DNA from: Bacteroidota bacterium
GTDB taxonomy: Bacteria; Bacteroidota; Bacteroidia; Palsa-948
Reading direction: 5' to 3'
Assembly (NCBI GenBank): GCA_023251675.1
Contig: JAHEYJ010000002.1
Coordinates: forward strand, 1-56,816
DNA: 56,816 bases
In this document: in pieces, positions 3,729 through 49,025 of the stretch
Position numbering within the stretch: position 1 is the stretch's first letter
Layout: each line of letters opens with the position of its first letter
Notes under the pieces: model-generated
Told to the model about the DNA's origin: nothing
What the model saw: the letters and a program-made list of their open reading frames with translations, nothing else
Databases searched by the model: none
Position numbers and translations under genes: made by a program

Positions 3729-5069
3729 TTATGAAAAAACATTGTTAAGTTTTTCTCTTGTTTTTCGTTCTCTTTGTTTTTGGAGGGAGCTGATGCCCAG
3801 GGCTTCCAGCATACCGTTTGCTTTCAGCAGGCATTCTTCGTATTCTTTTTCAGGAATTGAATTTGCCGTAATCGCGCTTCCTGCCTGAAAGGATAAGTAT
3901 TTTGAAGCAGCATTATAAAGAATGCTTCGTATGACCACATTAAAGTCAAAATCCCCGTCCGGAGTAATATAGCCGACTGCACCTGAATACATACCTCGTT
4001 TCGTTTTTTCGTAATGCTCGATCAATTCCATTGCTTTTATTTTTGGGGCGCCGGTCATCGAACCCATAGGAAATGAATTTTTCAAAACATCTGAAAAATG
4101 AAATCCGTCTTTTATCTCTCCGCTTACGGTAGAGATCATCTGGTGCCAATGCCGGAAGGTATAAACGCCAAACAATTCATCCACTTTCACGCGTTCACAG
4201 GTTCTGGACAGATCATTTCTGACCAGATCAACGATCATCACGTTTTCGCTTCGTTCTTTGTTGTTTTGAAGGAGACGATCCTTAAGCAACAGATCATCCG
4301 CAATTGTTTTTCCCCTTGGGGCGGTTCCTTTTATCGGCTGTGAGATTATCTTCTTTCCTGATTTTTTCAGAAACCGTTCAGGACTGGCGCAAAGTAAAAA
4401 CGTATCATTCAAACGGAAAAATGCGGAGAAAGGCGCCTGCGATGTTTCATTCAGTTTTATAAAAAGATCAGAGGGATTTATTTCTGCCTGTTCAGAATAA
4501 AACTCCATGCAGTAATTCATTTCATAAATATCCCCGTGTTGAATATGGTCTTTGATCCTGCGAACTGTGCGGATATATTCTTCCGATGAAATTCTTGTTT
4601 TAATTTTATTTTGATACCCGATACCCGATACCCGATACCGGATACCCGATATTTCATGAAATAGGTTTTCAATTTCTTTTTCAGATGAAATCTCCGGAAT
4701 AAAATAAATTTCTACAAGGCCTCCCTTTACAATAAAAACAAATTTCGGGCGAAAAAAATGCATGGATGGAAACCCAATGCCGTCATAATTGCCGGACGAT
4801 AGAACTTCAACTTCATTTTTCAGATCATAAGAAAGAAATCCGAACAGCCAGTCTTGCTTCTCTTCGTGAAACTGCTTAATTGCTTCAAAAGAATTATCCG
4901 TAGAATTTATCGTGCCTATTGTATCAATACCGGCAATCAGGCCCGCAGAACTTCCTTCCCAGCCATTACTTGTGAAGATCGCTGAGCAGGCAATACGGCT
5001 GGAATAAAAAAGAAGGTTTGTAATGAAAGAATCACAATCCGTTACCTTAAAGGAGAGCATTTTTCTCAT
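3729..5069 (-). CDS. pabB: chorismate-binding enzyme, probably aminodeoxychorismate synthase component I
   Basis: 446 aa. Motifs PKIKAMELIEHYE, RGMYSGAVGY and SIPEKEYEE belong to the TrpE/PabB family. PabB versus TrpE was not resolved by eye. Confidence 0.75.
   Translation of the reverse strand: MRKMLSFKVTDCDSFITNLLFYSSRIACSAIFTSNGWEGSSAGLIAGIDTIGTINSTDNSFEAIKQFHEEKQDWLFGFLSYDLKNEVEVLSSGNYDGIGFPSMHFFRPKFVFIVKGGLVEIYFIPEISSEKEIENLFHEISGIRYRVSGIGYQNKIKTRISSEEYIRTVRRIKDHIQHGDIYEMNYCMEFYSEQAEINPSDLFIKLNETSQAPFSAFFRLNDTFLLCASPERFLKKSGKKIISQPIKGTAPRGKTIADDLLLKDRLLQNNKERSENVMIVDLVRNDLSRTCERVKVDELFGVYTFRHWHQMISTVSGEIKDGFHFSDVLKNSFPMGSMTGAPKIKAMELIEHYEKTKRGMYSGAVGYITPDGDFDFNVVIRSILYNAASKYLSFQAGSAITANSIPEKEYEECLLKANGMLEALGISSLQKQRERKTREKLNNVFS
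4614..4648. repeat. heptamer array (atacccg)x5, in frame in the pabB-like gene
   Basis: atacccg atacccg atacccg ataccgg atacccg. On the minus strand it encodes SGIRYRVSGIGY. Confidence 0.9.
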
Positions 5070-5189
5070 GAGGCAAATGTATACTTATCCGTTTCTTTGA
5101 AATAATATTTTTTAGAATGATTTTTATCAGTTTAATGCACGACTTCGTCTAAGATTTTCTGCCGCTCGTCTAAATCTTTATTTTTTTAC

Positions 5190-5219
5190 TTGACAACCTA
5201 AAATACACGCATACATTTG
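5190..5219 (+). promoter_or_regulatory. Bacteroidota sigma-A type promoter (TTG-N19-TACATTTG)
   Basis: TTG at 5190-5192, TAcaTTTG at 5212-5219, 19-nt spacer. No + strand CDS lies downstream. Confidence 0.5.
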
Positions 5220-5225
5220 GCTCAC

Positions 5226-5335
5226 AAAACAGAAAGGAACTCACTACTAAAGATAATGCTCCCTTAAACGGAAGCAGTTTGTTTCATGGCGATGTTAGAA
5301 AGGCCTCCGACCGAGTCGGAGGTCTTCTAATTTTA
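5226..5335 (+). ncRNA. candidate small RNA (orphan promoter-to-terminator unit)
   Basis: About 110 nt lies between the 5190-5219 promoter and the 5302-5324 hairpin plus T-rich tail. It sits in a 310-bp gap between hemH and the pabB-like gene. The only ORF inside is 14 codons. Confidence 0.3.
5302..5324. terminator. hairpin downstream of hemH, also closing the candidate sRNA
   Basis: ggcctccgac-cga-gtcggaggtc, followed by ttctaatttta. Confidence 0.6.
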
Positions 5336-5379
5336 TAGAGGTGCAAAAGGACGCAGAAGGGGAGTACGGTTATCGCGCG

Positions 5380-7867: not shown

Positions 7868-8328
7868 GAAAAACCTTGTTAGCTATAAGCTGTTGGCTAT
7901 TGGCTATTGGCTTTTTTTCCTGTAAAGAAATTCAGCCGGTAACAGTTGGTGGAGTCAGCAATGTGAAGCTCATCAGCCTGACCAAAGAGGGAATTGAATT
8001 TGATTTTGATATGACGATCAACAATCCAAACCCGGTGGGAGTTACCGTTTTCCCTACAACCTTTGATGCGAACATCAATGATATAAATGCCGGCCACGTA
8101 AGACTGGCACAGAAAACAAAAATTAAAGCGAAAGGCGAACACACATCAACGTTTCATATAAAGACCGATTTCTCAAAACTTGAATTCAACGACCTTCCAA
8201 AAAGTTTATTGATGATCGCTTCGAAAAAAGGAAGCATCTACTTAAAAGGCGATATGAAGATCGGAAGATGGTTCTATAAAAAGAAATTCCCGATCGAGCT
8301 GAAGAAAACGATATCCCTATCGAAATAG
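7864..8328 (+). CDS. LEA14-like (LEA_2 / NDR1-HIN1-like) lipoprotein
   Basis: 154 aa with lipobox FFSC and an Ig-like LEA_2-type sequence. ATGA overlap with the upstream gene. Confidence 0.65.
   Translation: MRKTLLAISCWLLAIGFFSCKEIQPVTVGGVSNVKLISLTKEGIEFDFDMTINNPNPVGVTVFPTTFDANINDINAGHVRLAQKTKIKAKGEHTSTFHIKTDFSKLEFNDLPKSLLMIASKKGSIYLKGDMKIGRWFYKKKFPIELKKTISLSK
7882..7916. repeat. heptamer array (gctattg-like)x5 encoding a signal-peptide core
   Basis: gctataa gctgttg gctattg gctattg gcttttt. It encodes LAISCWLLAIGFF. Confidence 0.85.
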
Positions 8329-8463
8329 GAATATTCAAGTTACAAGCATCAAATCCCAAATAAATACCAACACCTAAATTCAAAGCACGAAACTGTTTGG
8401 GATTTTGATTTTTTGGATTCGATATTATTTGTAATTTGAGATTTGAACATTGAAATTTTCTCT

Positions 8464-10521
8464 ATGACAAATCGTCTTATTCACGAATCGAGTCCTTATT
8501 TGTTGCAGCACGCACATAATCCTGTGGATTGGTTCCCGTGGTGCGATGAAGCATTTACAAAAGCGCGAACGGAAAATAAATTAGTACTGGTGAGTATCGG
8601 CTATTCAGCCTGCCACTGGTGCCACGTGATGGAGCACGAGAGTTTTGAGGATGAAGAAGTGGCGCGCATGATGAATGAAAACTTTGTCTGTATTAAGGTG
8701 GATCGTGAAGAACGTCCTGACGTGGACAGTGTTTATATGACCGCCGTTCAGATCATGACCGTGAGCGGAGGCTGGCCGCTGAACTGTTTTACGCTGCCCG
8801 ATGGCAGGCCGATTTACGGAGGAACTTATTTCCAGCAGGAGCAATGGATGAAAACGCTGCAAACACTTTCAGACTATTTTAAAACTGAACCGGAAAAAGT
8901 TTTTCAATATGCAGACGAGTTGACTTCGGCTGTGAAACAGGCAGAGCTCGTTCCTGCTTTTAGCGACAAACCTGCGTTCACGAAAGAGATATTGGATTCC
9001 TGCTATGAAAACTGGAAAAAACGATTCGACAATAATGAAGGCGGCCCGAGCCGCGTTCCGAAATTTCCGCTTCCGAACAATTACTTGTTCCTGCTGAGAT
9101 ATTCGCAGACGCTCAGCCAGTGGGAGAGAACAAATCTTATCAGGCATATTGATCTGACGCTAACTAAAATGGCTTACGGCGGAATTTACGATCAGATCGG
9201 CGGCGGCTTTGCGCGTTACTCGACCGATGGTTATTGGAAAGTCCCGCATTTTGAAAAAATGCTTTATGATAATGCGCAACTGGTTTCACTCTATTCCGAA
9301 GCATATCAGCTCACAAAAAATAATTTGTACAAGCAAATTGTTTTCGAAACGCTTGAATTCATCTGCCGTGAGATGACTTCCCCGTCAGCTGACGGGGGAT
9401 TTTATTCAGCACTGGATGCGGATTCGGAAGGAGAGGAAGGAAAATATTATGTATGGACAAAAGAGAGCCTCACCCAAACCCTCTCCGAAGGAGAGGACTT
9501 AGAGCTTTTCTGCGATTATTTCAATGTGAACGAGATCGGATTTTGGGAAGATGAAAACCATATTCTTCTTAGAAAAAAATCAGATGAGGAAATAGCGAAA
9601 ATATTCGGGCTAAGTACCGAAGAATTGCAACGAAAGATCTCGGAAATGAAAAAGAAAGTCCTGGCAGTGCGTGAAAAAAGGATCAAACCCGGACTTGACA
9701 ATAAAATTCTCACTTCGTGGAACGCCATCATGATAAAAGGATATGCCGATGCGTATTCTGTGTTTCATGAAAAGGAATTTTTGGATGCTGCGTTGAACGG
9801 CGCGAGTTACATTATGAAATATTGTTCAAGTGAAGACAAGGGCTTATTACACCTCACCCCCAACCCCTCTCCCGGGGGAGAGGGGAGAAGGGGAGAGGTC
9901 AATGGATTTCTTGAGGACTACGCTTTCACCATTGAAGCGTTCATTTCGCTGTATGCAGTTACTTTTGATGCCGCGTGGCTGAAAAGGGCAAAATCGCTGG
10001 CGGAATATGCGCTTAAGCATTTTTACGATCCGGCTTCCTCTATGTTTTATTTCACGTCCGACCTGGATTCGGCGCTCATTGCCCGCAAAATGGAGATCCA
10101 GGACAATGTCATTCCTTCTTCAAATTCCGCTATGGCGAAGTCACTGTTTTATCTCGGAAAATATTTTGACAACAAACAATATGCTGAGATCTCTGAGAAG
10201 ATGCTGAAACAGGTTCAGCAGGAAATTTCTGCTTACGGTTCCGGCTATTCTAATTGGGCGATGCTGCTGCTGCACTTCACGCATCCCTTCTATGAAGTCG
10301 CCATTGTTGGAAACTCTGTTGATGAAAAAAGAAAAGCCCTGTCCGAACGTTACCTTCCTAACGCGATTTTTGTAGGTAGTAAATCATCAGGCGAACTTCC
10401 TCTTCTTGAAAACAAGTATGTGGAGGGCAAAACGCTGATCTACGTATGCGAAAACAAAACATGCAAAGCACCGACAGAACGTATAGAGGAAGTATGGGCC
10501 CAGCTGGATCTTTTACCGTAG
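8464..10521 (+). CDS. thioredoxin domain-containing protein (DUF255 / YyaL-like)
   Basis: Contains [17 protein letters not shown] and [19 protein letters not shown]. Start set at ATG 8464; the track start at 8443 is TTG. Confidence 0.85.
9480..9496. repeat. CCTCTCC/GGAGAGG hairpin inside a CDS
   Basis: cctctcc-gaa-ggagagg gives a perfect 7-bp stem. It encodes LSEGED. Confidence 0.6.
9864..9898. repeat. GC-rich REP-like hairpin inside a CDS
   Basis: cccctctccc-gg-gggagagggg, followed by the partial copy agaaggggagagg. It encodes [13 protein letters not shown]. Confidence 0.8.
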
Positions 10522-11558
10522 CCGCTTACCATTTGTTTCTCAGAAGAAGGTATAAGGAATTTGGTATAAGGAATAAGGCCGTTTTGTGTTTCCTTATTTC
10601 CCTATACCTTATACCCGTTACCTCTTCCGCCCAGATCATCGTTCCGAAGATCATCGGCATTTCCGTCAGCGATCCTCCTTTCAATCATGAGTTCATAAAG
10701 AAGAATAAGATCAAGACGATCACCGCAAGCGTGGTGGACAAACCCGACGGCGAGATCATCCGCGACAAAGGGTTGGCGCAGGTGTATGCGTTTGATACGA
10801 GCGGAAACCTCATGCATCATTACTATAATGAAATTACTGCGCTGGCGAAAACCGAAACAGAAATTCCGGCCGCGTACAATAAACACGGACGGGTGGTCAA
10901 GAAATCATTTACCAAAGTTGATTTCCAGTACCAGTACGATACGCTGGGTACGGAATATTCGTATACGTCCACCGGTTACGTGGTCATGAAACGCGTCTGC
11001 ATCGGCGATTTTTATAACACAACGTACTATGAATATTTCGGCGACGGGCTGGTGAGCCGCCAGGTGCTTTGCAAGGAAACCAACATCGCCAAACCGGGCG
11101 AGCCATTCAAGCTGGGCGTGCAGAAGATCCTGACGGAAGAAAAATTTCTGTATGAGAATTTAAGTCCTACGCAGGTGAAGAAACAATTTCTGAACGATGA
11201 AGGAAAATCCTACAAGCAGGGAATAATAAATTTCCAGAACGGGAAACCCGTTGACGAAGAATACCAGTTCGTGGTCGGGTTCATCCGCTCGGGCGTGACG
11301 TATAAATATGATGCAGGCAGCCGGTTGGTAGAACGGACAACAACAGACAACTCCAGCGGCATCACTACGGAGGAACAAACCTTTGATTACGATACGAACG
11401 GAAATGTAACTTCTGAAAAGAAGTTCAAGAACGGAACTCAGAGCGATGAAGTGGTTTACCTGTACGACGAATCAAAAAAATTACTCACCTCGCAGATCGA
11501 CAGGCAAACCTTAAAGGCAAGTATAAAGATCGTGAAGTACGAGTATACGTTCTATTAG
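10494..11558 (+). CDS. hypothetical secreted protein with YD-repeat-like motifs
   Basis: [15 protein letters not shown] and [14 protein letters not shown] resemble YD repeats. A hydrophobic segment ends in SSAQ. The start is uncertain: ATG 10494 overlaps the upstream gene, and TTG 10584 is an alternative. Confidence 0.5.
10547..10623. repeat. inverted pair of heptamer arrays
   Basis: aaggtat aaggaat ttggtat aaggaat aaggccg, then spacer ttttgtg, then tttcctt atttccc tatacct tataccc gttacct. The two arms are largely complementary. Confidence 0.8.
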
Positions 11559-11983: not shown

Positions 11984-11992
11984 TTCTGTTTA

Positions 11993-12057
11993 GTTAATTG
12001 GGTAATTAAGTTAATTGGGTAATTGGTCAACAGCCCTAATTACCCAATTACCTAATC
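11993..12057. repeat. AT-rich direct plus inverted repeat (taattgggtaatt words) forming a 13-bp hairpin
   Basis: taattgggtaatt at 12012-12024 pairs with aattacccaatta at 12038-12050. A direct copy lies at 11993-12010. The element sits between the hmgA stop and the rpiB start. Confidence 0.75.
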
Positions 12058-13348: not shown

Positions 13349-15313
13349 TTATTTTTCTTCCACCCAATCTCCATTTTCTTTGATGAGGCTGATAAGTTCG
13401 TCCACTGCAGTTTCAGAAGAGATATTTCTTTTCACCACTTCTTTTCCTTTGTACAGCGTGATCTTTCCGACTCCTGTTCCCACGTAACCGTAATCCGCAT
13501 CCGCCATTTCGCCGGGGCCGTTCACGATGCAGCCCATGATCCCGATCTTAACTCCTTTAAGGTGCGAAGTGCGTGAGCGGATCTTTGCGGTGGTTTCCTG
13601 AAGATCAAAAAGTGTTCTGCCGCACGACGGACAGGAAATATATTCTGTTTTAGAAATGCGCGTTCGTGTTGCCTGGAGAATTCCGAAAGCGGTAGAATTG
13701 GTTAATTGCCGGTTTTCAGTTTCCTGTTTATGGTTAGAGATCCAAATCCCATCACCGAAACCATCGAGCAGCAATGCACCAAGATCGGTAGAGGAATACA
13801 GTTGGAGTTTTTCTTCTGATAAATCTTTATAGCTGCGCTTGATGATGACAGGAATTTTTGAATTCAGATGCAGTAGTTCGAAGAACATTTTTCGCTGCTC
13901 TGCCATGCCATGGTCGTTTGATGTTTCAACTATCAGTACAACCGTAGGATCCAAATTGAGAATTGAGAATTGAGAATTGAAAATTGAATCCAGCGTGACA
14001 GCAACAAAATTTAACTCTTTGGACCTTTCTTTCGCAGAAAAATATTCTTCACTATTAAAGAGCGGATAAGTTCGATTTTTATTTTTCAGTTTTGAAAATG
14101 TTTTTGCATTGTAGATCAAACCAAGCGTTCCAGGAATTTGGAAATCAATTTCATTATCACCCAAATAAATATAATCGCATGCCTGGTCGGAAAGATTCCA
14201 TTTGTCAAGCTTTTCGGAATAGTTATACCCGACGGAGAATAATTGAGAAGGTGCAATTTTAGAGGTGAGGCCCGAAAAATCCGCAACCACCCTCGGAACG
14301 TTGTGGCCTCCAATATTGGAAACGGATATAGTTTCTCTTCTCTTATATTCAAAAGGATAATAATGCGGATTTTGACTTTTGACTTTTGACTTTTGACTTT
14401 TGACTTCTGCCTTTTCTCTTTTAGAATATCTCTCCGCAAAATTCTTCGCCACCGGAATTTCAAACTCCGGTTCTTCGGTCAGCGAAACACGGATGGTGTC
14501 GCCTAATCCGTCTTCCAGCAATGTTCCGATCCCCACAGCAGATTTTATTCTTCCGTCTTCGCCATCGCCGGCTTCGGTAACGCCCAGATGCAATGGATAA
14601 TTCCTGTCAGTCTGCAGCATTTTATTCACCAGCAAACGATACGCCTGCACCATCACCTGCGTGTTGCTGGCTTTCATGGAAAGGACGATGTCGAAATATT
14701 TTTTTTCCTCGCAGATACGGAGAAATTCAAAAGCGCTTTCCACCATGCCGAGCGGTGTATCGCCGTAGCGGCTGAGGATCCGATCGGACAACGAACCGTG
14801 ATTCGTTCCGATGCGCATCGCGGTTCCGTTCTCTTTGCAGATCTTTATCAGCGGAAGGAACCGTTCGCGGATCCGTTCCAGTTCTTCATCGTAGGTTTTA
14901 TCGGTGTATTCAATGTGCTCGAATTTTTTCCGGTCGGCATAGTTGCCGGGATTCACCCGTACTTTTTCTACAATACGCGCGGCAAGCTCAGCGGCATTGG
15001 GAGTGAAATGAATATCGGCGCAGAGCGGAGTTTTGTATCCCCGCTTACGCAGTTCCTTTTTTATGTTCTCAAGATTTTTTGCTTCGTTGATGCTCGGCGC
15101 GGTGATACGCACCAATTCGCATCCGGCTTCGATCATGCGGATGCTTTGCTCAACGGTTTTTTTCGTATCCATCGTATCCGTCGTGGTCATGGACTGGATA
15201 CGGATCGGATTGTTGCCGCCAATGCCCAATTCGCCCACTTTAACTTCCCTGGTTTTTAAGCGGGAATAATGAAAAAGCGAATTGCAATAATTGATATTTG
15301 TTTTTATAGACAC
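13349..15313 (-). CDS. ispG: 4-hydroxy-3-methylbut-2-enyl diphosphate synthase, long Bacteroidota form
   Basis: Contains NPIRIQSMTTTDT and ISCPSCGRT...GCIVNGPGE. The start is uncertain: GTG 15313 is preferred over the track TTG at 15394. Confidence 0.9.
   Translation of the reverse strand: MSIKTNINYCNSLFHYSRLKTREVKVGELGIGGNNPIRIQSMTTTDTMDTKKTVEQSIRMIEAGCELVRITAPSINEAKNLENIKKELRKRGYKTPLCADIHFTPNAAELAARIVEKVRVNPGNYADRKKFEHIEYTDKTYDEELERIRERFLPLIKICKENGTAMRIGTNHGSLSDRILSRYGDTPLGMVESAFEFLRICEEKKYFDIVLSMKASNTQVMVQAYRLLVNKMLQTDRNYPLHLGVTEAGDGEDGRIKSAVGIGTLLEDGLGDTIRVSLTEEPEFEIPVAKNFAERYSKREKAEVKSQKSKVKSQNPHYYPFEYKRRETISVSNIGGHNVPRVVADFSGLTSKIAPSQLFSVGYNYSEKLDKWNLSDQACDYIYLGDNEIDFQIPGTLGLIYNAKTFSKLKNKNRTYPLFNSEEYFSAKERSKELNFVAVTLDSIFNSQFSILNLDPTVVLIVETSNDHGMAEQRKMFFELLHLNSKIPVIIKRSYKDLSEEKLQLYSSTDLGALLLDGFGDGIWISNHKQETENRQLTNSTAFGILQATRTRISKTEYISCPSCGRTLFDLQETTAKIRSRTSHLKGVKIGIMGCIVNGPGEMADADYGYVGTGVGKITLYKGKEVVKRNISSETAVDELISLIKENGDWVEEK
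13954..13988. repeat. heptamer array (aattgag)x5, in frame in ispG
   Basis: aattgag x3 followed by aattgaa x2. It encodes FNSQFSILNL on the minus strand. Confidence 0.9.
14370..14404. repeat. heptamer array (ttttgac)x5, in frame in ispG
   Basis: Five perfect ttttgac units. They encode KSQKSKVKSQ on the minus strand. Confidence 0.95.
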
Positions 15314-21536: not shown

Positions 21537-24446
21537 ATGTCATTTTCATCTGCCCCTTCGGGGTTCGCATCACGCCATCTGGGTCCAAGGGACAAAGATG
21601 TTCAAACCATGCTCGGAAAGATCGGGGCATCCTCGCTGGATGAACTGATTTCACAAACCATCCCTTCAAACATACGACTGAAAAAACCGCTGAACCTTCC
21701 GGATGGTTTAAGCGAGTTTGAATACCTCAAAGAACTCAAAGCGACAGCTTCGCGAAATAAATTATTCCGGACTTTTATCGGGCTCGGATATTACAATTGC
21801 ATCATTCCTCCGGTGATCCAGCGGAACATTCTTGAAAATCCAGGATGGTACACAGCCTATACTCCTTACCAGGCAGAGATTTCCCAGGGAAGGCTGGAAG
21901 CACTTTTGAATTTTCAAACGATGGTGATCGATCTCACCGGGCTTCCGATCGCAAACGCATCATTGCTGGATGAAGGGACCGCCGCTGCAGAGGCGATGAT
22001 CCTTTTTTATAACTCACGGCCGAAAACAAAAACGGCCGCAAAAACATTTTTTGTTTCTTCCACTTGTTTTCCGCAAACGATCGAAGTGGTAAAAACAAGA
22101 GCATTGCTTTTAGGGATTGAAATTCTGGTTGGCGATCATTTCAAATCCCAAGTCTCAGATCTCACTTCTTGCTTTGGCTCCCTGATCCAATACCCAGATA
22201 CCAATGGAAATATTTCCGATTACAAGGATTTTGTAACTAAAATTCACAGTGCAGGGGGATTTGTTGCAGTGGCTTCTGATCTTATGGCGCTTACTTTACT
22301 TACACCTCCGGGAGAATGGGGTGCCGATGTAGTTCTTGGAAATTCTCAGCGATTGGGGGTGCCTATGGGATACGGTGGCCCGCATGCAGCGTTCTTCGCT
22401 ACAAAAGAAGATTTCAAACGTTTGCTGCCGGGAAGAATTATCGGCGTATCGGTCGATTCATCAGGAAATACGGCCCTCCGCATGGCATTGCAAACCCGCG
22501 AACAACATATTCGCCGGGAAAAAGCAACTTCAAATATATGCACGGCGCAGGCGCTTCTCGCCATTATGGCCGGTATGTACGGCGTGTATCACGGGCCTGC
22601 GGGAATTAAATCCATAGCAGAAAAAATCCATCATCTTGCCTGCGGGATTTCCGAACAATTAGAAAAACTCGGACTTAAACCTGAGAATAAAATATTCTTT
22701 GACACGATTTCGGTTTCTCTTTCTGATAAAATCCTTATTCAAAAAATAAAATCCATTGCAGAAGGTAAAAAGATCAATTTTAATTATTCCGGAAGCAGGA
22801 TCTCGATCAGTGTTGACGAAACAACAACCGGAAAAGACGCAAAAGAAATTGTGGAAATTTTCGCAGAAGCGCTCGGCAAAAACAGTGCAGTGCCTGCTTT
22901 GAACGGTGAAACAAATAAAAGTATAATCAAAAATTCTTCTTTCAATCGCCAGTCACCGTACATGACGCATCCCGTTTTCAATTCGTTTCATTCGGAAACC
23001 GAAATGATGCGCTACATCAAACGGCTGGAGAATAAAGACCTCTCGCTAACACATTCAATGATCTCACTCGGCTCCTGTACGATGAAATTAAACGCAGCGG
23101 CAGAATTATTCCCGATTACATGGCCTGAGTTTGCAAATTTACATCCGTTCATTCCGGCTGAACAGGCAGAAGGATTTAAGATCGTGATTACCGAACTGGA
23201 AAAATTTCTCTGCGAGATTACCGGGTTCAATGCCGTTTCCTTTCAGCCTAACAGCGGCGCGTCAGGAGAATATGCCGGGCTGCTGGTGATCCAGGCGTAT
23301 CACAGAAGTAAAGGTGATACGCACCGGAAAGTTGTTTTGATTCCCTCTTCCGCCCACGGAACAAATCCGGCGAGCGCCGCCATGGCGGGAATGGAGATCG
23401 TGATCGTGAAATGCGATGAGAACGGAAATGTGGATGTGAATGACCTGAAGGAAAAAGCGGAAAAACATAAAGCAAATCTTTCCTGCCTCATGGTGACCTA
23501 TCCTTCCACTCACGGAGTTTTTGAGGAAGCCATTTCAGAAATTACATCAGTCATTCACCAGAATGGAGGACAGGTATACATGGATGGAGCAAATATGAAC
23601 GCACAGGTAGGATTAACAAGCCCCGCCACGATTGGCGCTGATGTTTGCCATTTGAACCTTCACAAAACCTTTGCAATTCCTCACGGTGGCGGCGGTCCCG
23701 GAGTGGGGCCGATCGGAGTGGCATCGCATCTTGCTCCTTTTCTTCCATCGCATCCTGTTGTTACCATTAACCAACAACCAACAACCATCAAACCTGTAAC
23801 TGCTGTTTCAGCAGCTCCGTTCGGCAGTGCGCTAATTCTTCTGATTTCTTACGGATACATTAAAATGCTTGGAAAACAAGGTGTAACGGATGCAACCCGG
23901 TATGCAATTCTGAATGCTAATTACATGAAGGATGTGCTGAAAAAGCACTATCCCATATTATATGTAGGAAAGAACGGCAGGGTAGCTCATGAAATGATCC
24001 TCGATTGCAAAGAGATCAAACGCGAATCAGGAATTGAAGTGGGCGATATTGCAAAGCGTTTAATGGACTATGGGTTTCATGCTCCCACGGTTTCTTTTCC
24101 TGTTCATGATACGTTAATGGTAGAACCAACCGAGAGCGAATCAAAAGAAGAACTGGACAAATTCTGCGAAGCCATGATTTCTATTCGAAAAGAGATAGAA
24201 GAAATAATCAATAAAAAAGCAGATGCGCTGGATAACGTTCTTAAAAATGCTCCGCATACGGCTAAAGTGCTGGTCGCGGATGACTGGAAACACTCCTATT
24301 CCAGGGAAAAAGCAGCCTATCCTTTAAAATGGGTCAGGGAAAATAAATTCTGGCCATCGGTGGGCAAAATAGACAATGCAAATGGTGACCGGAACCTGAT
24401 TTGCGCTTGCCCGCCTGTTGAAATGTATACAGTAGAAACCGTATAG
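21537..24446 (+). CDS. gcvP: glycine dehydrogenase (decarboxylating), single-chain P protein
   Basis: 969 aa. Contains [21 protein letters not shown] and [16 protein letters not shown] (PLP lysine region). Confidence 0.95.
23764..23798. repeat. heptamer array (ccaacaa-like)x5, in frame in gcvP
   Basis: ccattaa ccaacaa ccaacaa ccatcaa acctgta. It encodes [11 protein letters not shown] in a loop that varies between GcvP homologs. Confidence 0.75.
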
Positions 24447-24513: not shown

Positions 24514-25506
24514 ATGAAAAAAATTTACACGCTTATTATGTTCTTTGCGCTTTTTTTGTTTCACACAGCAAATGCGCAATCAGCACTTTCATTGGGCGCA
24601 CTCACACCCGTTTCTGTCGAGGCGAAAAATAGTAATCCCGGTTTGCTGGCCCTTGATACCATGACGCCTCCCGTATTTACCATGGCTTGCTTCACCGGCG
24701 ATGCGGCCCCGCTCGTATACTATCAAATGGGCGCTGCAGGAATGTTGGTCGGAAATAATTCTTATGGAGAAACAGAAGCCGCGCAACGCTATGCTTTCAC
24801 CGGCAGCGGAACCATTGGTGAAGTGCTGGTTATGTACGGTCATGTAACCGGAACTACCGGAACTACCGCTGCGAAAGTTTATTCCATTACGGCGAAAAAA
24901 CCCGGAACAGTATTAGGCACAAGCGGCACCGTAACCCTTGCAAATATTACGACGACAGGGTATACCAGCTATACATTTTCTCCTACCGTTTCCGTAACTA
25001 CTAATTTTGCTGTTGCCTCTGTTTTTCCTACTACCGCGGCCGCAGGCGATACAGTAGCCGTGGTTTCTACTAAAGAAACCTGCCACTCCGTTGATTCATT
25101 GTCCTACATGAAAATTCCTAACTATGGCGGATGGCTTTTTGCGAATCAATTATTGAATGTTACGATCCCGCGCGACACAAGTCTTGACCTGGTGATTTTA
25201 CCGGTAGTGAATGTGACAACCGGGATTAATGAATATCCAAATAATAATGGATTGACATTGATGGGAACTTTTCCCAACCCTGCACGGGATTTTATTAATC
25301 TCCGCTACCGTTTGGAGGAGCAATCAGCCGTTTCAATAGAAATATTTGATTTAACCGGGCGCATCATTGAAAAGTCATCAGAAAATCTTTCTGCCGGAGA
25401 ACATAACATAAAAGTATCTCTCAAAGATCTTTCAGCCGGCAATTATTATTACACGATCAAAACAGGAAAAACGCAGCTTACCAGTAAATTTGCTGTTATA
25501 AAATAA
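24514..25506 (+). CDS. T9SS type-A CTD secreted protein (cargo 1)
   Basis: Signal peptide ends in ANAQ. The C-terminus has FPNPARDFINLRY...YYYTIKTG...KFAVIK. The N-domain shares KPGTVLGTS with cargo 4. Confidence 0.8.
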   Translation: MKKIYTLIMFFALFLFHTANAQSALSLGALTPVSVEAKNSNPGLLALDTMTPPVFTMACFTGDAAPLVYYQMGAAGMLVGNNSYGETEAAQRYAFTGSGTIGEVLVMYGHVTGTTGTTAAKVYSITAKKPGTVLGTSGTVTLANITTTGYTSYTFSPTVSVTTNFAVASVFPTTAAAGDTVAVVSTKETCHSVDSLSYMKIPNYGGWLFANQLLNVTIPRDTSLDLVILPVVNVTTGINEYPNNNGLTLMGTFPNPARDFINLRYRLEEQSAVSIEIFDLTGRIIEKSSENLSAGEHNIKVSLKDLSAGNYYYTIKTGKTQLTSKFAVIK

Positions 25507-25525
25507 TTTCTTTTTCATTTACATG

Positions 25526-25560
25526 AAAGCCCCTTCAGGAATTCCTCAAGGGGCTTTTTT
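25526..25560 (+). terminator. rho-independent terminator
   Basis: aaagcccctt ... aaggggcttt followed by a T-run. Confidence 0.8.
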
Positions 25561-25715
25561 AATCACTCCTCCTTAAAAAACAGATACGGTATGCAGTGTG
25601 CCGGAACGAATAAGCCTTTAATTATCATAGCGGACAGAAACCCAATTGGGGTTTGCCCTCTGGTTGAAACCATATAATGGAGAAAGTATAATTAAAAGCG
25701 TGCAGGGTTATGCCA

Positions 25716-25746: not shown

Positions 25747-25785
25747 CCGACTTTTAAATACTAACATTAATTAAAAAAAACAATC

Positions 25786-27003: not shown

Positions 27004-27007
27004 AAAA

Positions 27008-27049
27008 ATGAAGCAAAAAATTTGTCTCCCCCCCCCCAAAGACTTTTGA
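27008..27049 (+). other. candidate leaderless 13-codon uORF (MKQKICLPPPKDF)
   Basis: ATG AAG CAA AAA ATT TGT CTC CCC CCC CCC AAA GAC TTT TGA. The PPP codons are the C10 tract. Confidence 0.25.
27028..27037. repeat. homopolymeric C10 tract
   Basis: Ten consecutive C in an AT-rich intergenic region, 37 nt upstream of ATG 27074. Confidence 0.95.
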
Positions 27050-27073
27050 CGACACACTAATAGATTATTTACC

Positions 27074-27469
27074 ATGAAGAATATCGCAATCACTAGCGGA
27101 GGTAATAACCTTTTTAAAAAAAGAAAAAGGAAACTTCATTATAAGCCAATGCAAAATCCTGACAACCTGCTTTTAACTCTTGCTGAAAGAATCAGAAACT
27201 TGCGTGTTGGATTTAATTTGTCACAAGAAGAACTTGCAATTAAAATGTATAAAGACAAACAATTCATTCAGCGTATTGAATCGGGCAAGTATAATCCTCA
27301 TTTTATCACGATTGCTGCCATTGCTGATGCGTTGAATGTACCTCTTAGCATACTCGTTAATATAAAAACAACTAATCAAAAAACACTTTATTGCTCAAAT
27401 CACACCTGTAGAAAATTCAATCAGCATTCACATTATTTCAACAATGGTGGTGCAATTGTAAGTTGTTGA
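27074..27469 (+). CDS. XRE-family helix-turn-helix transcriptional regulator
   Basis: HTH_3-like LAERIRNLRVGFNLSQEELAIKMYKDKQFIQRIESGKYNP. Alternative start at ATG 27149. The C-terminal tail is Cys/His-rich (CSNHTCRKFNQHSHY). Confidence 0.75.
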   Translation: MKNIAITSGGNNLFKKRKRKLHYKPMQNPDNLLLTLAERIRNLRVGFNLSQEELAIKMYKDKQFIQRIESGKYNPHFITIAAIADALNVPLSILVNIKTTNQKTLYCSNHTCRKFNQHSHYFNNGGAIVSC

Positions 27470-27611
27470 AGAAAAACACATATCAAATAAATTCCATTTT
27501 CAAACTCAGTGATAGCGAAACTTTTTTTAATAACAAAACAAACAACCATAATCAGGACCGGTTATCCACATGCGCCCAAAAACAAAACATTAATTTCTAA
27601 AATTAATTATC

Positions 27612-28406
27612 ATGAAAAAATTATTTTTTACCCTGACACTGATGTTGGCAATAACATCATTGTCATTTGCATCATTTTCATTTACAATTTATAATAATAA
27701 TCAGGTTGCTTCTTGTACATATACTATTACTGCAATGACGGTTTCTGATAATAGCAGCCCTGTTCCGTGTGTTACTATGTGGGGAGGTCGTGGATGGAAA
27801 CAAGTATTAAATCCCGGTTCCACATATACTTTTACTGCGAACTGCAGCGGTTCTCCGGTTTGGAGTACCATTAGCGTAACTGTAATAGGGAGTTGCAACA
27901 CCTATTATTTTGGTAACTCGAATAATAATAGTGCAGGTATGTGCTGGAATTGTAATAATTCCGATTATTTTACTTGTTGGCAAGTCAATGGGAGTGGTGG
28001 GAGTTATGAAATCCGTCCAGATATTCTTGTAGGAGGCCGTCTTACAAGTGAGAATACAAAAAATAAAAAAGATAATGTAGTAAGTGAAATAGAGAGAACA
28101 ACTCATTTTGCAAGTAAAAATAATGCTGACGAAAATGCAAACAAAATAGTTTCATCTCTTGAAAACACACCAAACCCTACAGCTGATTTTGTTAACCTAA
28201 ACTATGAGCTAACAAACGATGCAGATATTTCGGTATCTATCTTTGATATTTCGGGCAAAGAGGTATTAACAATGAAACAAGGTATTCAGAAAGAAGGGCA
28301 ACACTCTTTGAAATTGGATGTTTCTTCTCTTGCAAGTGGTATGTACTCTTATTCATTTAAAGCAGGGGAAAGCATACTTACGAGAAAATTCATCATTGCA
28401 AAATAA
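27612..28406 (+). CDS. small Cys-rich T9SS type-A CTD secreted protein (cargo 3)
   Basis: Signal peptide present. The N-domain is about 120 aa with 8 Cys and no family was recognised. The C-terminus has TPNPTADFVNLNY...MYSYSFKAG...KFIIAK. Confidence 0.7.
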   Translation: MKKLFFTLTLMLAITSLSFASFSFTIYNNNQVASCTYTITAMTVSDNSSPVPCVTMWGGRGWKQVLNPGSTYTFTANCSGSPVWSTISVTVIGSCNTYYFGNSNNNSAGMCWNCNNSDYFTCWQVNGSGGSYEIRPDILVGGRLTSENTKNKKDNVVSEIERTTHFASKNNADENANKIVSSLENTPNPTADFVNLNYELTNDADISVSIFDISGKEVLTMKQGIQKEGQHSLKLDVSSLASGMYSYSFKAGESILTRKFIIAK

Positions 28407-28425
28407 GACTTTAAATTTCTTTTTA

Positions 28426-28457
28426 AAAACCCTCTCCGTTTTCGGAGGGGGTTTTTG
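28426..28457 (+). terminator. rho-independent terminator of the CCTCTCC/GGAGAGG family
   Basis: aaaaaccctctccg-tttt-cggagggggttttt. Confidence 0.8.
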
Positions 28458-28544
28458 TTTTTATTCTTCCCTTCTGCAAATAAAATAGTTTATATTTGCA
28501 CAACTTTTTAATAAACCAATCAACATTAATTTTTAATCAAAAAA

Positions 28545-29615
28545 ATGAAAAATTTTTACATTTTATTTGTAGGTATTAGTGTTCTTTTTTCTGCAAATGG
28601 TTTTGCCCAGAAAAGAATCGCTAAAGTCAGCGTAACGAAAGTTTCCTCTTTTCAATCCGCTGAAAGAAATCAATCGCCGGTACATCCGATGAACACTAAC
28701 GATACGATCACTGCCCATTGGGATGTGATCTATCCGATGCCATCTGTAGATACGGCAGTCACATACAGTGATTTAGGAGGAGGTTTTGTTGCGGGGCAAG
28801 ATTCCTATCTTGATAAAGCAAAGGCGCAAAAATTCGATGCAACATATGGTGTTACAAGTTCAAATGGTTCTATTACAAACTTACTTATGTGGGTCGGCGC
28901 AAAAATTCAGGCAACAACCCCGGGCAATGCATCATGGGTTCCTACAATTTGGGCGGATAACGCCGGCAAACCGGGAACAGTACTTGGAACTTCTACTGCA
29001 ATTACAGTTGCGCAGATGGATACATCTTCTGCCGCTCTTCAACTGATAGGACCTATCACTGCTTTGAAAGGAGCATATAATTTGAATGCCGCGTTCAGTC
29101 CTGCCGTTGCAATTCCCGTCAATCAAATATTCTGGGCAGGATATACAATTACGTATGACTCCGGAGATTCAGCCGGTTTGGTTTCATCCACCAATGGAAA
29201 CTTCCCTGATGCGGTCACACACACCTTTGAACAATGGAGCGATAATAGCTGGAACTCTTTTAATGATGGAACCACCAATAGCTGGCAATCAGATGTAGCA
29301 CTCGCCGTATATCCCGTAGTTAGTATTGCTACCCATATCGAGGAAAGCAATAGTTCTATTGCATCTGTTAAAAATGTACCCAATCCCGCAAACGATAATA
29401 CGATTATTTATTATTTGCTGAAAGAAAGCTCAAATGTTGAATTGTCATTGTTTGATGTAACAGGGAAAAAATTAATGTCCACCAATGAAGGGCTGCAAGC
29501 CTCAGGAAATCACAAAATCAAACTGGATGTTTCTTCTCTTTTATCCGGGGTTTATTTTTATACAATTTCTGCAGGGGATTTTAAAATGACAAGCAAAATG
29601 AGCGTAGTAAAGTAA
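28545..29615 (+). CDS. T9SS type-A CTD secreted protein (cargo 4)
   Basis: A TATATTTG box lies at 28491-28498. Signal peptide present. The CTD, VPNPANDNTIIYY...VYFYTISAGDFKMTSKMSVVK, is very close to that of cargo 2. Confidence 0.8.
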   Translation: MKNFYILFVGISVLFSANGFAQKRIAKVSVTKVSSFQSAERNQSPVHPMNTNDTITAHWDVIYPMPSVDTAVTYSDLGGGFVAGQDSYLDKAKAQKFDATYGVTSSNGSITNLLMWVGAKIQATTPGNASWVPTIWADNAGKPGTVLGTSTAITVAQMDTSSAALQLIGPITALKGAYNLNAAFSPAVAIPVNQIFWAGYTITYDSGDSAGLVSSTNGNFPDAVTHTFEQWSDNSWNSFNDGTTNSWQSDVALAVYPVVSIATHIEESNSSIASVKNVPNPANDNTIIYYLLKESSNVELSLFDVTGKKLMSTNEGLQASGNHKIKLDVSSLLSGVYFYTISAGDFKMTSKMSVVK

Positions 29616-46790: not shown

Positions 46791-46797
46791 TACAGCA

Positions 46798-47520
46798 CTA
46801 CAACCCTTCTCCTTTGGGGGAGATAGAGGGGGTGAAAAAGTCTTTCAGGTAGAACGGCTCGAAGTAGGCCAGGTTCTCAAATTTTTTCTCATCAAAATAT
46901 TTTTCTGCCAATGGAATCATGAACCGGGCCGAAGGATTTATGCCGTCGATAAAAATTGCATTCGTACTTTTTATTTGTGATTTGCATTTTTCAGCACCAT
47001 CTCCGAAGAAATAGAGTGGAGATGTGAAATGTGAGATGTGAGATTTATTTGAAAGAACTTTTGAAATAAAATTTTCATCCACGATCTCTGCTGAAGCAGG
47101 ACAAATCTCTTTTATATTCTCATCGTACAAAGCACAGTAGACTTCCATTCTTCTGGCATCGATCATCGGACAAAACAGACTTGAGACTTGAGACTTGAGG
47201 CTTGAGACTTGCCCTGCCGCCATTGCTTCCAAAGAACTAATTCCGATCAATGGTTTATCCAATGCATAACACAATCCTTTTGCCGTTGAAACGCCGATCC
47301 GTAATCCCGTAAATGAGCCGGGACCTTTGCTGACAGCAACCGCATCAATATCTTTTAAATGAATTCTTGCCTGACGGCATACTTCTTCAATATACCGCGT
47401 GAGATTTTCAGCGTGGGAGTGTTTTGCGTCGATGGATTCTTTTAATGCGATCAACTTTCCATTCTGCCCGAGTGCAACAGAGCACGATTTTGTGGAGGTT
47501 TCTAAACAGAGAATTGTCAT
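46798..47520 (-). CDS. tsaB: tRNA threonylcarbamoyladenosine biosynthesis protein TsaB
   Basis: MTILCLETSTKSCSVALGQNG and GPGSFTGLRIGVSTAKGL are present. The C-terminal tail SPKGEGL is encoded by a CCTTCTCC/GGGGAGA-type element. Confidence 0.88.
   Translation of the reverse strand: MTILCLETSTKSCSVALGQNGKLIALKESIDAKHSHAENLTRYIEEVCRQARIHLKDIDAVAVSKGPGSFTGLRIGVSTAKGLCYALDKPLIGISSLEAMAAGQVSSLKSQVSSLFCPMIDARRMEVYCALYDENIKEICPASAEIVDENFISKVLSNKSHISHFTSPLYFFGDGAEKCKSQIKSTNAIFIDGINPSARFMIPLAEKYFDEKKFENLAYFEPFYLKDFFTPSISPKGEGL
47015..47042. repeat. heptamer array (atgtgag-like), in frame in tsaB
   Basis: agtggag atgtgaa atgtgag atgtgag. It encodes SHISHFTSP on the minus strand. Confidence 0.7.
47179..47213. 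repeat. heptamer array (acttgag)x5, in frame in tsaB
   Basis: acttgag x3, then gcttgag and acttgcc. It encodes SSLKSQVSSL on the minus strand. Confidence 0.85.
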
Positions 47521-47532
47521 TGACTGGTTACT

Positions 47533-47605
47533 AATAACGAATGGTTACGAATATTACTAATTCGTTCTAACCAATATTCGTAACATTCGTAATGGATTCG
47601 TTATT
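47533..47605. repeat. nested inverted repeats built from ACGAAT/ATTCGT words
   Basis: The inner 12-bp stem is gttacgaatatt (47544-47555) paired with aatattcgtaac (47573-47584). The outer stem is aataacgaat (47533-47542) paired with attcgttatt (47596-47605). Confidence 0.85.
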
Positions 47606-47611
47606 GGTATT

Positions 47612-48988
47612 CTATTCTTTCTTCCAGCTGCCGGCAATATCTGACTTTTCAGACTTTTTTACTTCCATGCCATTCTTAAGAAGTTTTGCGACGGCGTTGT
47701 AAGGGCCATTCACCACTTCATCGCCTTCTTTCAGCCCTTCGATTATTTCAATAGCAAGATTATCCTGGATCCCTGTTCTTACTTTCTGCAAGGTTACTTT
47801 CCCGTCTTTGAAAACAAAAACACATTCCTGGGGTTTTAAATCTTTTGAAGTTTTGGCGGCTTCTATCTTTTCTTTTTTCTCATCCACCACTTTTGCGCCG
47901 TAATCATCCCGGTTCTCTTTCTTTTCATCTTTTGCATTGACGGTGGAATCACTTCTTGTCGTAACGGCCTGAATAGGCAACGAAAGAACATTCGGTGCGC
48001 TCTTCGTATGGATATCAACGGTTGCAGACATGCCCGGGCGGAAAGGAGACATATTCGGATCTTTTGGATCCATCAGATCTTTGTACGATTCCTGAAGGAT
48101 GCGGATCTTCACAGTGAAGTTGGTCACCTGGTCCGCCATTACTCCTGAAGTGTTTGCCGAATTGGCAATTTCAGTTACGATCCCTTTGAACTTTCTGTCA
48201 AGGTAAGCATCCACTTCAATATCGGCAGTGTCATTCATGTGCACGCGTACGATATCGTTTTCATTTACATCCACACTCACTTCCATTTCGTTAAGATTGG
48301 CAAGGGTCATTATTTCAGAACCTTCCATCATGTTGGTTCCCACCACGCGTTCCCCTTTTTCCTTGCTGAGTTTAGAAACCGTTCCGCCCACAGGAGCAAA
48401 AATGGAGGTCTTGTTCAGGTTTTCTACAGCTTCTTTTTGCGATGCCTGCGCGCTGGTCACATTGAACATGGAGGCCTTGATTCCTTCTTCAGCTGATTCC
48501 ACCTGTGCTTTTGCGGATTCATAAGATGCTTTTGCATTATCAAAATCAGCCTGCGAAACAGCGCCCTGGTCAAAAAGTTTTTTGCTTCGGTTGAATGAAG
48601 CCTCTGCGTTTGCGAACTGGGCCTTTACCTGTGAAAGCTGGGCCTTTGCGGTTTCAATGTTCGACTGGGAGGAACTGACAGCCGCACTGGCGCGGTCAAC
48701 CGCCGACTGGTAAATATCCGGTTTGATCTTTACGAGCAGATCTCCTTTGTTGACATGGTCTCCTTCTTTCACCATCATTTCCACGACTTCGCCCGACACA
48801 TCCGAACTGATCTTCAGCTGTACTTCAGGCTGAATTTTTCCGTTTGCGGAAACGGTTTCAATAATTGTTCTGCGCTGAACCTTTTCTACGGTCACTTCGA
48901 CGGCCCCGCTATTGGTACAGCTTTTTATTGCAATAATGGTGAAGAGAATGATTATTCCGCTTCCGATCAATATGAGTGGCTTCTTCAT
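47612..48988 (-). CDS. efflux transporter periplasmic adaptor subunit (HlyD/MFP family)
   Basis: N-terminal TM helix, lipoyl/barrel motifs, and a long coiled-coil rich in A/Q/S/E. Confidence 0.85.
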   Translation of the reverse strand: MKKPLILIGSGIIILFTIIAIKSCTNSGAVEVTVEKVQRRTIIETVSANGKIQPEVQLKISSDVSGEVVEMMVKEGDHVNKGDLLVKIKPDIYQSAVDRASAAVSSSQSNIETAKAQLSQVKAQFANAEASFNRSKKLFDQGAVSQADFDNAKASYESAKAQVESAEEGIKASMFNVTSAQASQKEAVENLNKTSIFAPVGGTVSKLSKEKGERVVGTNMMEGSEIMTLANLNEMEVSVDVNENDIVRVHMNDTADIEVDAYLDRKFKGIVTEIANSANTSGVMADQVTNFTVKIRILQESYKDLMDPKDPNMSPFRPGMSATVDIHTKSAPNVLSLPIQAVTTRSDSTVNAKDEKKENRDDYGAKVVDEKKEKIEAAKTSKDLKPQECVFVFKDGKVTLQKVRTGIQDNLAIEIIEGLKEGDEVVNGPYNAVAKLLKNGMEVKKSEKSDIAGSWKKE

Positions 48989-48990
48989 GT

Positions 48991-49025
48991 ATTTACTTTT
49001 GACTTTTTAATTTTGCCTTTTACCT
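48991..49025. repeat. heptamer array (tttNNct)x5 filling the TolC-adaptor spacer
   Basis: atttact tttgact ttttaat tttgcct tttacct. Confidence 0.7.

Follow-up and report, generated by a model that had tools for sequence, protein, structure and literature searches.

Results

Heptamer arrays in a Bacteroidota contig

The stretch of DNA analysed here, hereafter the window, comprises positions 1 to 56,816 of contig JAHEYJ010000002.1 of a Bacteroidota bacterium (assembly GCA_023251675.1), and the elements in question are short arrays of tandem 7-nt units that lie within and between its genes. The genes that carry such arrays include a pabB-like gene, ispG, gcvP and tsaB; the window also encodes gldK-like, gldL, gldM, gldN, porP and many cargo proteins of the type IX secretion system (T9SS). 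The nearest relatives of its IspG come from metagenome-assembled genomes (MAGs) of uncultured Bacteroidota/Bacteroidia from palsa and groundwater (83%, 78% and 76% identity), and the source runs are groundwater metagenomes. Because the IspG relatives are Bacteroidota and gldKLMN, porP and T9SS cargo are encoded, the host is not a heterocyst-forming cyanobacterium, or any cyanobacterium, but an uncultured gliding member of the Bacteroidota with type IX secretion.

Arrays were detected with Tandem Repeats Finder (TRF) and with a separate lag-7 self-match scan at one fixed score, and 30 dinucleotide-preserving shuffles of the window served as the null. The scan found seven period-7 arrays, against a mean of 0.07 and a maximum of one per shuffle. 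At other periods it returned none (4-6, 8 and 10-13), one each (9 and 15) or, at period 14, five, this being a multiple of 7. Period 7 is the sole enriched tandem period in the window. An earlier note on this DNA had set an excess over shuffled sequence beforehand as the test of its proposal, and the proposal withstands it (7 versus 0.07).

That note had listed ten loci. TRF gives period-7 rows at nine of the ten places, whereas the loose run at 8429-8456 was called neither by TRF at score 30 nor by the lag-7 scan and is at chance level. We class seven arrays as solid, two as weak but plausible (10543-10623 and 48991-49027) and this last one as chance-like (Table 1). A different unit at every locus, as the note had described, is borne out by the scan, which is independent of TRF. 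Copy numbers do cluster near the five it gave, but they are not constant, running from 3.3 to 6.3 in the window. The absence of arrays at 24.5-46 kb holds save for one 2.5-copy TRF row at 31933. Six arrays indeed lie in frame within housekeeping open reading frames (ORFs), namely pabB-like, ispG (two), gcvP and tsaB (two), and the peptides VKSQKSKVKSQ and SSLKSQVSSL are confirmed. An assembly artefact can be ruled out, since two independent assemblies (L081 and L082; loci from other assemblies are given L numbers) agree with the window letter for letter, tsaB arrays included; arrays also occupy the matching sites in other MAGs.

Table 1. Heptamer arrays in the window, with the support for each and the sequence in which it lies
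Feature	Position	Strand	Unit and support	Product or context
Array, solid, 5.6 copies	4613..4651	-	GATACCC on + strand, sense TATCGGG/GGGTATC; TRF score 71, 93% matches	ISGIRYRVSGIGYQ, aa 140-153 of pabB-like (chorismate-binding) protein; linker between N-terminal region and catalytic domain; Pfam domains flank
Degenerate array, solid	7882..7916	+	GCTATTG, perfect core 7889-7912; TRF and lag-7 scan	AISCWLLAIGFF, aa 7-18, hydrophobic signal-peptide core of LEA_2-family putative lipoprotein
Loose run, chance-like	8429..8456	.	TTGANAT	Spacer 5' of DUF255/thioredoxin-domain gene
Weak array, then inverted complement to 10623	10543-10578	+	AAGGTAT/AAGGAAT; TRF 5.1 copies, 68% matches	
Array, solid, 5 copies	13954..13988	-	Sense CTCAATT/TTCAATT (AATTGAG on +); TRF score 61	SIFNSQFSILNL, aa 469-481 of IspG (site 2)
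Array, solid, 6.3 copies	14370..14413	-	Sense GTCAAAA (TTTTGAC on +), 37 nt perfect; TRF score 78	KAEVKSQKSKVKSQN, aa 328-342 of IspG (site 1)
Degenerate array, solid	23764..23798	+	AACCAAC/CCATTAA, core 23769-23791	GcvP aa 743-754, variable loop
Array, solid, ~4 copies	47015..47044	-	Sense ACATCTC (ATGTGAG on +)	KSHISHFTSPL, TsaB aa 159-169 (site 2)
Array, solid, 5 copies	47177..47213	-	Sense CAAGTCT (AGACTTG on +); TRF score 63	QVSSLKSQVSSL, TsaB aa 103-115 (site 1), adjoining conserved FCPM codons on the upstream side
Degenerate array, weak	48991..49027	.	TTTNNCT; TRF 5.3 copies, 73% matches; also a period-14 row	Spacer between tolC-like and hlyD-like genes

Arrays recur at orthologous sites with lineage-specific units

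At site 1 of TsaB, nearly all homologues in the clade (57-74% identity) have a peptide of 12-14 residues with a 7-residue period at the matching position, and this peptide varies by lineage (QVSSLKSQVSSL, QISNLKSQISNL, QVKSQKSKVKNL, QIRNPKSEIRNL, LIHQPLTINHQPSL and others). The underlying DNA in seven lineages comprises exactly five heptamers each, adjoining the conserved FCPM codons upstream, with the units CAAGTCT, CAAGACT, AAAGTCA, AAAATYC, CATYARC, CCAGAAG and CAAACYT. Units differ at 0.4-2.2 positions within an array versus 4.5 between lineages. Five of the seven are visibly related, with an in-register similarity greater than in randomly drawn sets of units (124 of 5000 resamples). At least three of nine lag-7 residue matches are present in 44 of 106 homologues; at lag 6 or lag 8, none of the 106 reaches four matches. 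In a predicted model of TsaB (pLDDT 83), site 1 spans the end of a helix (residues 96-107) and a loop (108-114), and site 2 falls in a predicted loop of lower confidence (158-168). Site 2 of tsaB is an 8-residue loop insertion relative to all aligned homologues, and it is the only site to show an insertion of this kind.

Two further observations concern TsaB. The unit of the tsaB array at L083:10329-10359, CAAGACT, is a rotation of the AAGACTC repeat of Escherichia coli neuO, probably a coincidence arising from heptamers that are free of stop codons and encode hydrophilic residues. About ten TsaB homologues (P0045, P0047, P0055, P0063, P0069, P0072, P0074, P0076, P0078 and P0096) are ~380 residues long, compared with the usual ~230, and contain a DUF559 domain (PF04480, Vsr-like endonuclease), some with PF18741 as well; the best local alignment covers 40-49% of the query, which indicates that in these genes tsaB has either taken up an endonuclease domain or is fused to one.

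The linker of the pabB-like protein follows the same pattern. Peptides of equal length with a 7-residue period occupy the matching site (ISGIRYRVSGIGYQ, INQLPITDYQLPIT, SNIQYPISNIQYPL and LNCPLPLVPCPLSL), and in 55 of 60 homologues the alignment of this stretch is free of gaps.

We aligned 81 ispG genes, that of the window and those of 80 genome loci. Arrays of quite different units recur at both variable sites in many lineages: GTCAAAA, AGATGGC, AACTTCA, TCAACTA and AACGTCC are among those at site 1, and CTCAATT, AAAATCT, CCAATTG and GTACAAA among those at site 2. Of 40 arrays in these loci, 15 lie within ispG, which makes up 11% of the DNA there, and several more lie right behind the ispG stop codon. 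At site 2 the window and L001 share CTCAATT, and the units of L002 and L003 differ from it by one or two steps. The segment between conserved residues at this site is 87 nt long in array-free genes, which have a conserved SLTEDFIQRISKEKN-type motif, and it is also 87 nt long in the array carriers (window, L001, L002, L003 and L048). This equality indicates that the conserved sequence was replaced length-neutrally, at least twice independently, once in the clade of the window and once in L048. At site 1 the window and L002 each have 90 nt, and each array resembles a 7-mer in the flank of the other (GGCAGA; AGT(AT)CAAAA), an anecdotal likeness that suggests a local origin of the unit.

The gcvP loop with its array has the same length as in the array-free L002 and is 2-3 residues longer than in the array-free L001 and L003. 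The arrays had been thought to add peptides to their hosts. The ispG site 2 and gcvP loops, of the same length as in array-free orthologues, speak against this, as do the tsaB, pabB-like and ispG orthologues that bear arrays of their own at the matching position.

A distinct sequence was also seen at ispG site 2. The 21-nt palindrome ATGCTGAAACAAGTTCAGCAT, read in frame as MLKQVQH, is present there in L004 (11370-11434, two copies in opposite orientation) and in L009 (11255-11275), two loci that are otherwise about 70% alike; a 19/21 copy lies inside the DUF255/thioredoxin-domain gene of the window (10201-10221). Possibly this is a very small dispersed hairpin whose insertions keep the frame.

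Array length has a mode at 31-35 nt

Across 1.55 Mb of the window and its relatives, 32 period-7 arrays have at least four copies, and each of periods 5, 6, 8 and 9 yields at most 4. The distribution of array lengths is bimodal: chance-like doublets make up one peak, at 16-20 nt, and the other lies at 31-35 nt, while arrays longer than 44 nt are few. About 45% of the arrays of at least 28 nt are outside long ORFs. The 31-35-nt mode is identical within and outside long ORFs and thus does not stem from the reading frame.

Public metagenome contigs scanned for three copies of GTCAAAA gave 119 internal arrays of this one unit. By length, 24 measured 21-27 nt, 52 measured 28-34 nt, 27 measured 35-41 nt, 4 measured 42-48 nt, 10 measured 49-69 nt and 2 measured 70 nt or more; 79 of the 119 thus fall at 28-41 nt. 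The clustering of copy number, for which a broad spread had been named as the contrary outcome, holds both in 1.5 Mb of relatives and in these 119 arrays. The first 80 of the GTCAAAA loci (506 kb) contain 132 more heptamer arrays of other units, about one per 3.8 kb, with a mode of 31-33 nt. Over all 119 loci (774 kb) there are 287 period-7 arrays, the GTCAAAA ones counted, versus 2-31 for other periods. The loci range in GC content from 0.3 to 0.7. Their taxonomy was read from crude markers only, namely HIP1 (highly iterated palindrome 1) density and a home-made hidden Markov model of the T9SS C-terminal domain, by which 19 are HIP1-rich (cyanobacterium-like), one of these with STRR1-like GGGACTG arrays, and at least two bear T9SS. 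Of 128 GTCAAAA arrays, 56 are in open frames of at least 150 residues, and the stop-free strand is the sense strand in all 56.

Perfect GTCAAAA runs in the metagenome loci L086-L204 begin and end at preferred phases: starts fall at two A's before GTC (46 and 26) and ends after ...AAAA or ...AAAAGT (48 and 37). Some arrays are parts of larger structures. An element of about 110 nt is present in two copies 10 kb apart (L010:10804-10922 and L010:20513-20624), both ending in a matching degenerate heptamer array (GCTTTTG GCTCTTG GCTTTTA ACTT...), which indicates that some arrays travel within larger repeats. At L060:9520-9642 two heptamer arrays sit within a larger tandem repeat of about 85 nt, and at L011:19753-19927 an AGTATTG array is followed by its inverted complement about 100 nt away, as at window positions 10543-10623.

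In the groundwater runs X1 and X2, summed contig depth rises from ~12 to ~1500 over the AATTGAG array (window 13950-13999); this spike of ~125-fold stems from similar arrays on other contigs, dozens of them with unrelated flanks, and is not informative on the locus. Logan contigs of the source genome stop inside the same array, from which we conclude that heptamer arrays fragment k-mer assemblies of the groundwater community.

Units share variants, and copy number is equal in close strains

To ask how units relate to each other within an array, we used 225 arrays of 28-60 nt, of which 63 are perfect and 116 have two or more variants. In 84 of these 116, a variant is present in at least two units, against 28.9 expected under random substitution. 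The patterns include AABB, ABBA and ABAB, also in arrays inside genes. Such shared variants are a signature of copying within the array. Arrays in genes occupy variable loops, linkers and one signal peptide, and they are read in all three frames.

Eight arrays were identical, copy number included, between the members of two pairs of near-identical strains, a small sample drawn from consensus assemblies; L083 and L084 differ by 3 SNPs over 18.5 kb, and L087 and L205 by 11 SNPs over 5.8 kb. Two other candidate patterns were set aside. Families of units, through copying between loci or a preferred motif, were dropped as an explanation: unit likeness within loci is barely above that between loci, with one-mismatch pairs at 0.121 versus 0.087, a small excess that comes partly from compound arrays. 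We likewise make no general claim for an edge effect with more divergent terminal units, as divergence over the 225 arrays is 0.062 for terminal and 0.077 for inner units by a measure biased by the definition of array ends.

Further loci and the array-free block

The array of the LEA_2-family gene lies in a predicted signal peptide with a lipobox, as read from the sequence ...LLAIGFFSC. The weak array and its inverted complement at 10543-10623 form an imperfect hairpin that begins 26 nt past the stop codon of the DUF255 gene and extends into what are probably the signal-peptide codons of the ORF that follows; its RNA fold (-27.9 kcal/mol, z = -2.0) is modestly better than that of shuffles. The degenerate array at 48991..49027 makes up the entire 37-nt spacer from the stop codon of the tolC-like gene (ORF 49026-50453, minus strand) to the hlyD-like start codon (48988), a spacer whose length in syntenic loci is anywhere between 3 and 43 nt.

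The low-GC block without arrays consists of gldKLMN/porP/uvrC core DNA and T9SS cargo genes. Four consecutive small-protein genes with a T9SS C-terminal sorting domain (Por_Secre_tail) lie at 24514-29615, followed by porP/sprF, gldK-like, gldL, gldM and gldN. We rejected the idea that this block is a foreign island or a recent import from an array-free lineage, given its content of core gliding and T9SS DNA, and we regard its lack of arrays as a weak statistical observation.

Two other repeats of the window have longer periods. A 17-nt perfect direct repeat, AGTTAATTGGGTAATTA (1.9 copies), in the spacer of two minus-strand genes (11992-12056) is followed by repeats of AATTACCC, the reverse complement of part of AGTTAATTGGGTAATTA, and together these could be an operator-like or hairpin element. 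A 213-nt tandem repeat (56407-56802; 1.9 copies, 82% identity) in a CHU_C / Ig-like T9SS cargo gene looks like an ordinary domain duplication. No Rfam family and no tRNA was found in the window.

Discussion

We identify seven solid arrays of tandem heptamers in a contig of an uncultured gliding Bacteroidota, six of them in frame within housekeeping genes. The closest comparison raised in the earlier note was with the short tandemly repeated repetitive (STRR) elements, whose classical units are CCCCAGT (STRR1), TTGGTCA (STRR2) and CAACAGT (STRR3) and which, going by the title of a 1997 paper by Vioque, reportedly occur inside the RNase P RNA gene (rnpB) of heterocystous cyanobacteria. This comparison is right in kind, as in either case short tandem arrays of 7-nt units, with several units per genome, also lie inside conserved genes. 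It does not extend to the host, which is an uncultured Bacteroidota rather than a cyanobacterium, and the window's arrays are in protein-coding loops translated in three frames. None of the three classical units forms a tandem doublet in the window, where only 2-8 singletons of each are present.

Related systems have been described in other bacteria. In a 2019 survey of 7006 genomes (Mori et al., SPADE), tandem heptamers were the most abundant intergenic repeats, with "no clear clue" to their function (PMC6344855). Among long simple sequence repeats (SSRs), period 7 is the most over-represented in many prokaryotic genomes (Mrazek, Guo and Shah 2007, as summarised in PMC4692102 and PMC4679880; Mori et al. 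2019), and our window, relatives and metagenome loci reproduce this. Coding SSRs are mostly multiples of three according to surveys in the form summarised in PMC4679880, and the 7-nt length matches the DNA segment held by a replicative polymerase in an idea of Mrazek (2007), as cited in PMC4679880 and PMC4692102. The accessible portions of the long-SSR surveys stress intergenic arrays, and in-frame arrays in essential genes, orthologous persistence with turnover of the unit and a unit-independent 31-35-nt mode do not appear in those portions.

In Geobacter metallireducens, families of tandem heptanucleotides with four or with five units lie both in genes and in the DNA between them (PMC2700814), but a single consensus unit recurs at the many sites of a family, which was read as a regulator-binding or RNA element, whereas the window has nearly one unit per site. 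The GGGNATC repeats of Xanthomonas and Nostoc prefer four units (PMC4692102), a preference explained by their G-rich, quadruplex-forming sequence. Since the units of the window are A/T-rich and diverse, the quadruplex idea cannot account for their similar size preference. TAACTGA sets of two to six copies are known from Beggiatoaceae, cyanobacteria and some Bacteroidetes, and other intergenic heptamer repeats have been noted in Gramella, Aequorivita and Elizabethkingia (PMC4679880). Unlike the arrays described here, the TAACTGA sets have a single favoured unit, are mostly just 5' of start codons and contain forward stop codons; TAACTGA does not occur in tandem in the window.

The arrays are a genuine instance of this known class of heptanucleotide repeats, in a new lineage. 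The class itself is not new, because other bacteria are on record as having arrays with four to five heptamers, in genes as well as between them (PMC2700814, PMC4692102, PMC6344855). In the limited literature that we searched, we found no description of in-frame arrays at orthologous loops of essential genes with lineage-specific units, nor of a size mode that is independent of the unit.

We propose, with a probability of about 0.6, that the arrays are heptanucleotide microsatellites of the STRR/long-SSR class, non-functional, locally seeded, homogenised, frozen by the reading frame and confined to tolerant sequence. Most probably they arise as a side product of DNA metabolism and serve no function themselves. 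An array would start from a local 7-mer. Strands or sister copies would then misalign by one unit, and subsequent copying or mismatch correction would homogenise the units; a neighbour may in this way overwrite a unit with no change in length, a form of concerted evolution. An essential gene whose array grew or shrank by one or two units would be put out of frame, and such changes would be purged, leaving copy number frozen. Selection would clear arrays from constrained sequence, so that those in loops, gene ends and spacers remain. Array length is constant between lineages, from which we infer that copying in essential genes is effectively length-neutral. The earlier note had considered a constant copy number with variable units to be not what simple slippage predicts; slippage-type copying may still be at work, given the variants that are common to several units (84 arrays against 29 expected).

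Several observations weigh against this proposal. The SLTEDFIQRISKEKN-type segment at ispG site 2 gave way to an array at least twice with no change in length, which is not easily accounted for by ordinary slippage in one step or a few. Generic slippage predicts a falling distribution of lengths, but the lengths peak at 31-35 nt. It also predicts copy-number differences between close strains, and there were none in the eight arrays of the two strain pairs, a small consensus sample. Because the frame blocks the gain or loss of single units in essential genes, length-neutral conversion is an assumption of the proposal. Finally, the presence of arrays at shared sites across lineages 57-74% identical in protein could reflect selection for the repeat.

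The choice of 7 nt, the size of ~33 nt (a ceiling of ~5-6 copies) and the length-neutral replacement of loops lack an explanation under the by-product proposal, which leaves room for a specific repair or replication activity that rewrites patches of ~30-35 nt as a reiterated local 7-mer. One example would be a gap-filling polymerase that stutters on a 7-nt template while the ends of the gap are anchored, so that the product is length-neutral and of characteristic size. We consider such an activity unlikely, although several observations are in keeping with it: a mode of 31-35 nt irrespective of unit, coding status and phylum, conserved sequence replaced length-neutrally at ispG site 2 and gcvP, the paired 90-nt arrays and flanking 7-mers at ispG site 1, near-identical strains that do not differ in copy number, and the non-uniform start and end phases of GTCAAAA runs. 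No candidate enzyme is known, and the AABB, ABBA and ABAB patterns fit stepwise copying of units better than regeneration of whole arrays. Longer arrays, of 50 to 262 nt, also occur, and selection on loop length can equally yield length neutrality in genes. If the idea were true, a widely distributed activity that fills gaps of fixed size would explain the long-noted excess of heptamers in prokaryotes, and the tsaB, ispG and pabB-like arrays would be natural recorders of it.

The remaining readings are each contradicted by at least one test. It is rather improbable that the arrays are functional DNA or RNA elements under selection, such as tandem sites for a reader that moves in 7-nt steps (for example cold-shock-domain proteins bound to mRNA) or elements that regulate translation or how stable a transcript is. 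Arrays do persist at the tsaB, pabB-like and ispG sites and just past the ispG stop codon in deeply diverged lineages, one array occupies a whole intergenic spacer, and roles of this type have been proposed for TAACTGA repeats 5' of start codons, with CspB binding in heptamer steps (PMC4679880). The unit sequence, however, is not conserved between loci or lineages, which rules out any sequence-specific reader. Arrays are placed wherever sequence may vary, be it in protein loops, in a signal peptide or in spacers; in many lineages the periodicity at these sites has disappeared with the loop unchanged, and nothing in the window matches Rfam.

A role as phase-variable contingency loci, in which slippage by one unit would toggle genes, appears highly unlikely. 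The precedent is neuO of E. coli K1, whose translated AAGACTC repeat is phase-variable and ranges from 3 to 53 copies (PMC13001214). As in neuO, a unit that is not a multiple of three is repeated in coding sequence and translated in three frames, and the same heptamer, in rotation, forms the tsaB array of L083. The neuO repeat, however, varies between strains and within cultures as an on/off switch, while arrays of the window type have ~5 copies in every lineage. Their hosts are single-copy housekeeping genes (ispG, gcvP, tsaB, pabB-like), for which an off state would be harmful, and they are internal to these genes, unlike contingency loci, which occupy promoters or 5' coding sequence in genes for surface or accessory functions that tolerate an off state. 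Copy number is moreover equal in the near-identical strains (eight arrays from two pairs of consensus assemblies).

Rickettsia palindromic elements and Nostoc small dispersed repeats are dispersed copies of one sequence, with hairpin potential, that insert in frame at tolerant sites of conserved genes. We find it slightly less credible still that the arrays are tiny mobile insertions of this type which landed in frame. They resemble these elements as short repeated DNA in frame at tolerant sites, a few belong to larger dispersed repeats (the two ~110-nt copies of L010), a 21-nt palindrome recurs in frame in three genomes, and many contigs of the source metagenome have AATTGAG-like arrays with unrelated flanks. 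Heptamer arrays, in contrast, are locally unique tandem repeats whose units differ by locus and which have neither terminal inverted repeats nor common flanks. They show no net insertion relative to orthologues at ispG site 2, gcvP (versus L002) and the pabB-like linker, and by our estimate the number of AATTGAG-like contigs is about that expected for random units in a 4-Gb metagenome. The palindrome is the closer analogue of the Rickettsia and Nostoc elements.

Selection at the protein level for a heptad, as in a coiled coil or amphipathic helix, can practically be dismissed: the peptides are 7-residue-periodic and the modelled TsaB has a helix ending within site 1, but the DNA has a period of 7 nt and not 21, near-identical nucleotide units are read in three frames, the peptides are wholly different between lineages with frequent proline (QIQNPKFKIQNL, LIHQPLTINHQPSL), and such arrays also occur in non-coding DNA.

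In practical terms, the arrays that we propose to be by-products of DNA metabolism give housekeeping proteins stretches of low-complexity peptide, they disrupt the graphs of short-read assemblies, and alignments and phylogenies can be led astray at these positions. Three or four loop sites in single-copy essential genes that carry five-unit arrays across a deep clade offer a handle on the heptamer excess. Because the frame fixes their length, homogenisation can be separated from length change, which is impossible with intergenic arrays, and the orthologous set allows the rates of turnover, the direction of spread and any link to repair genes to be measured.

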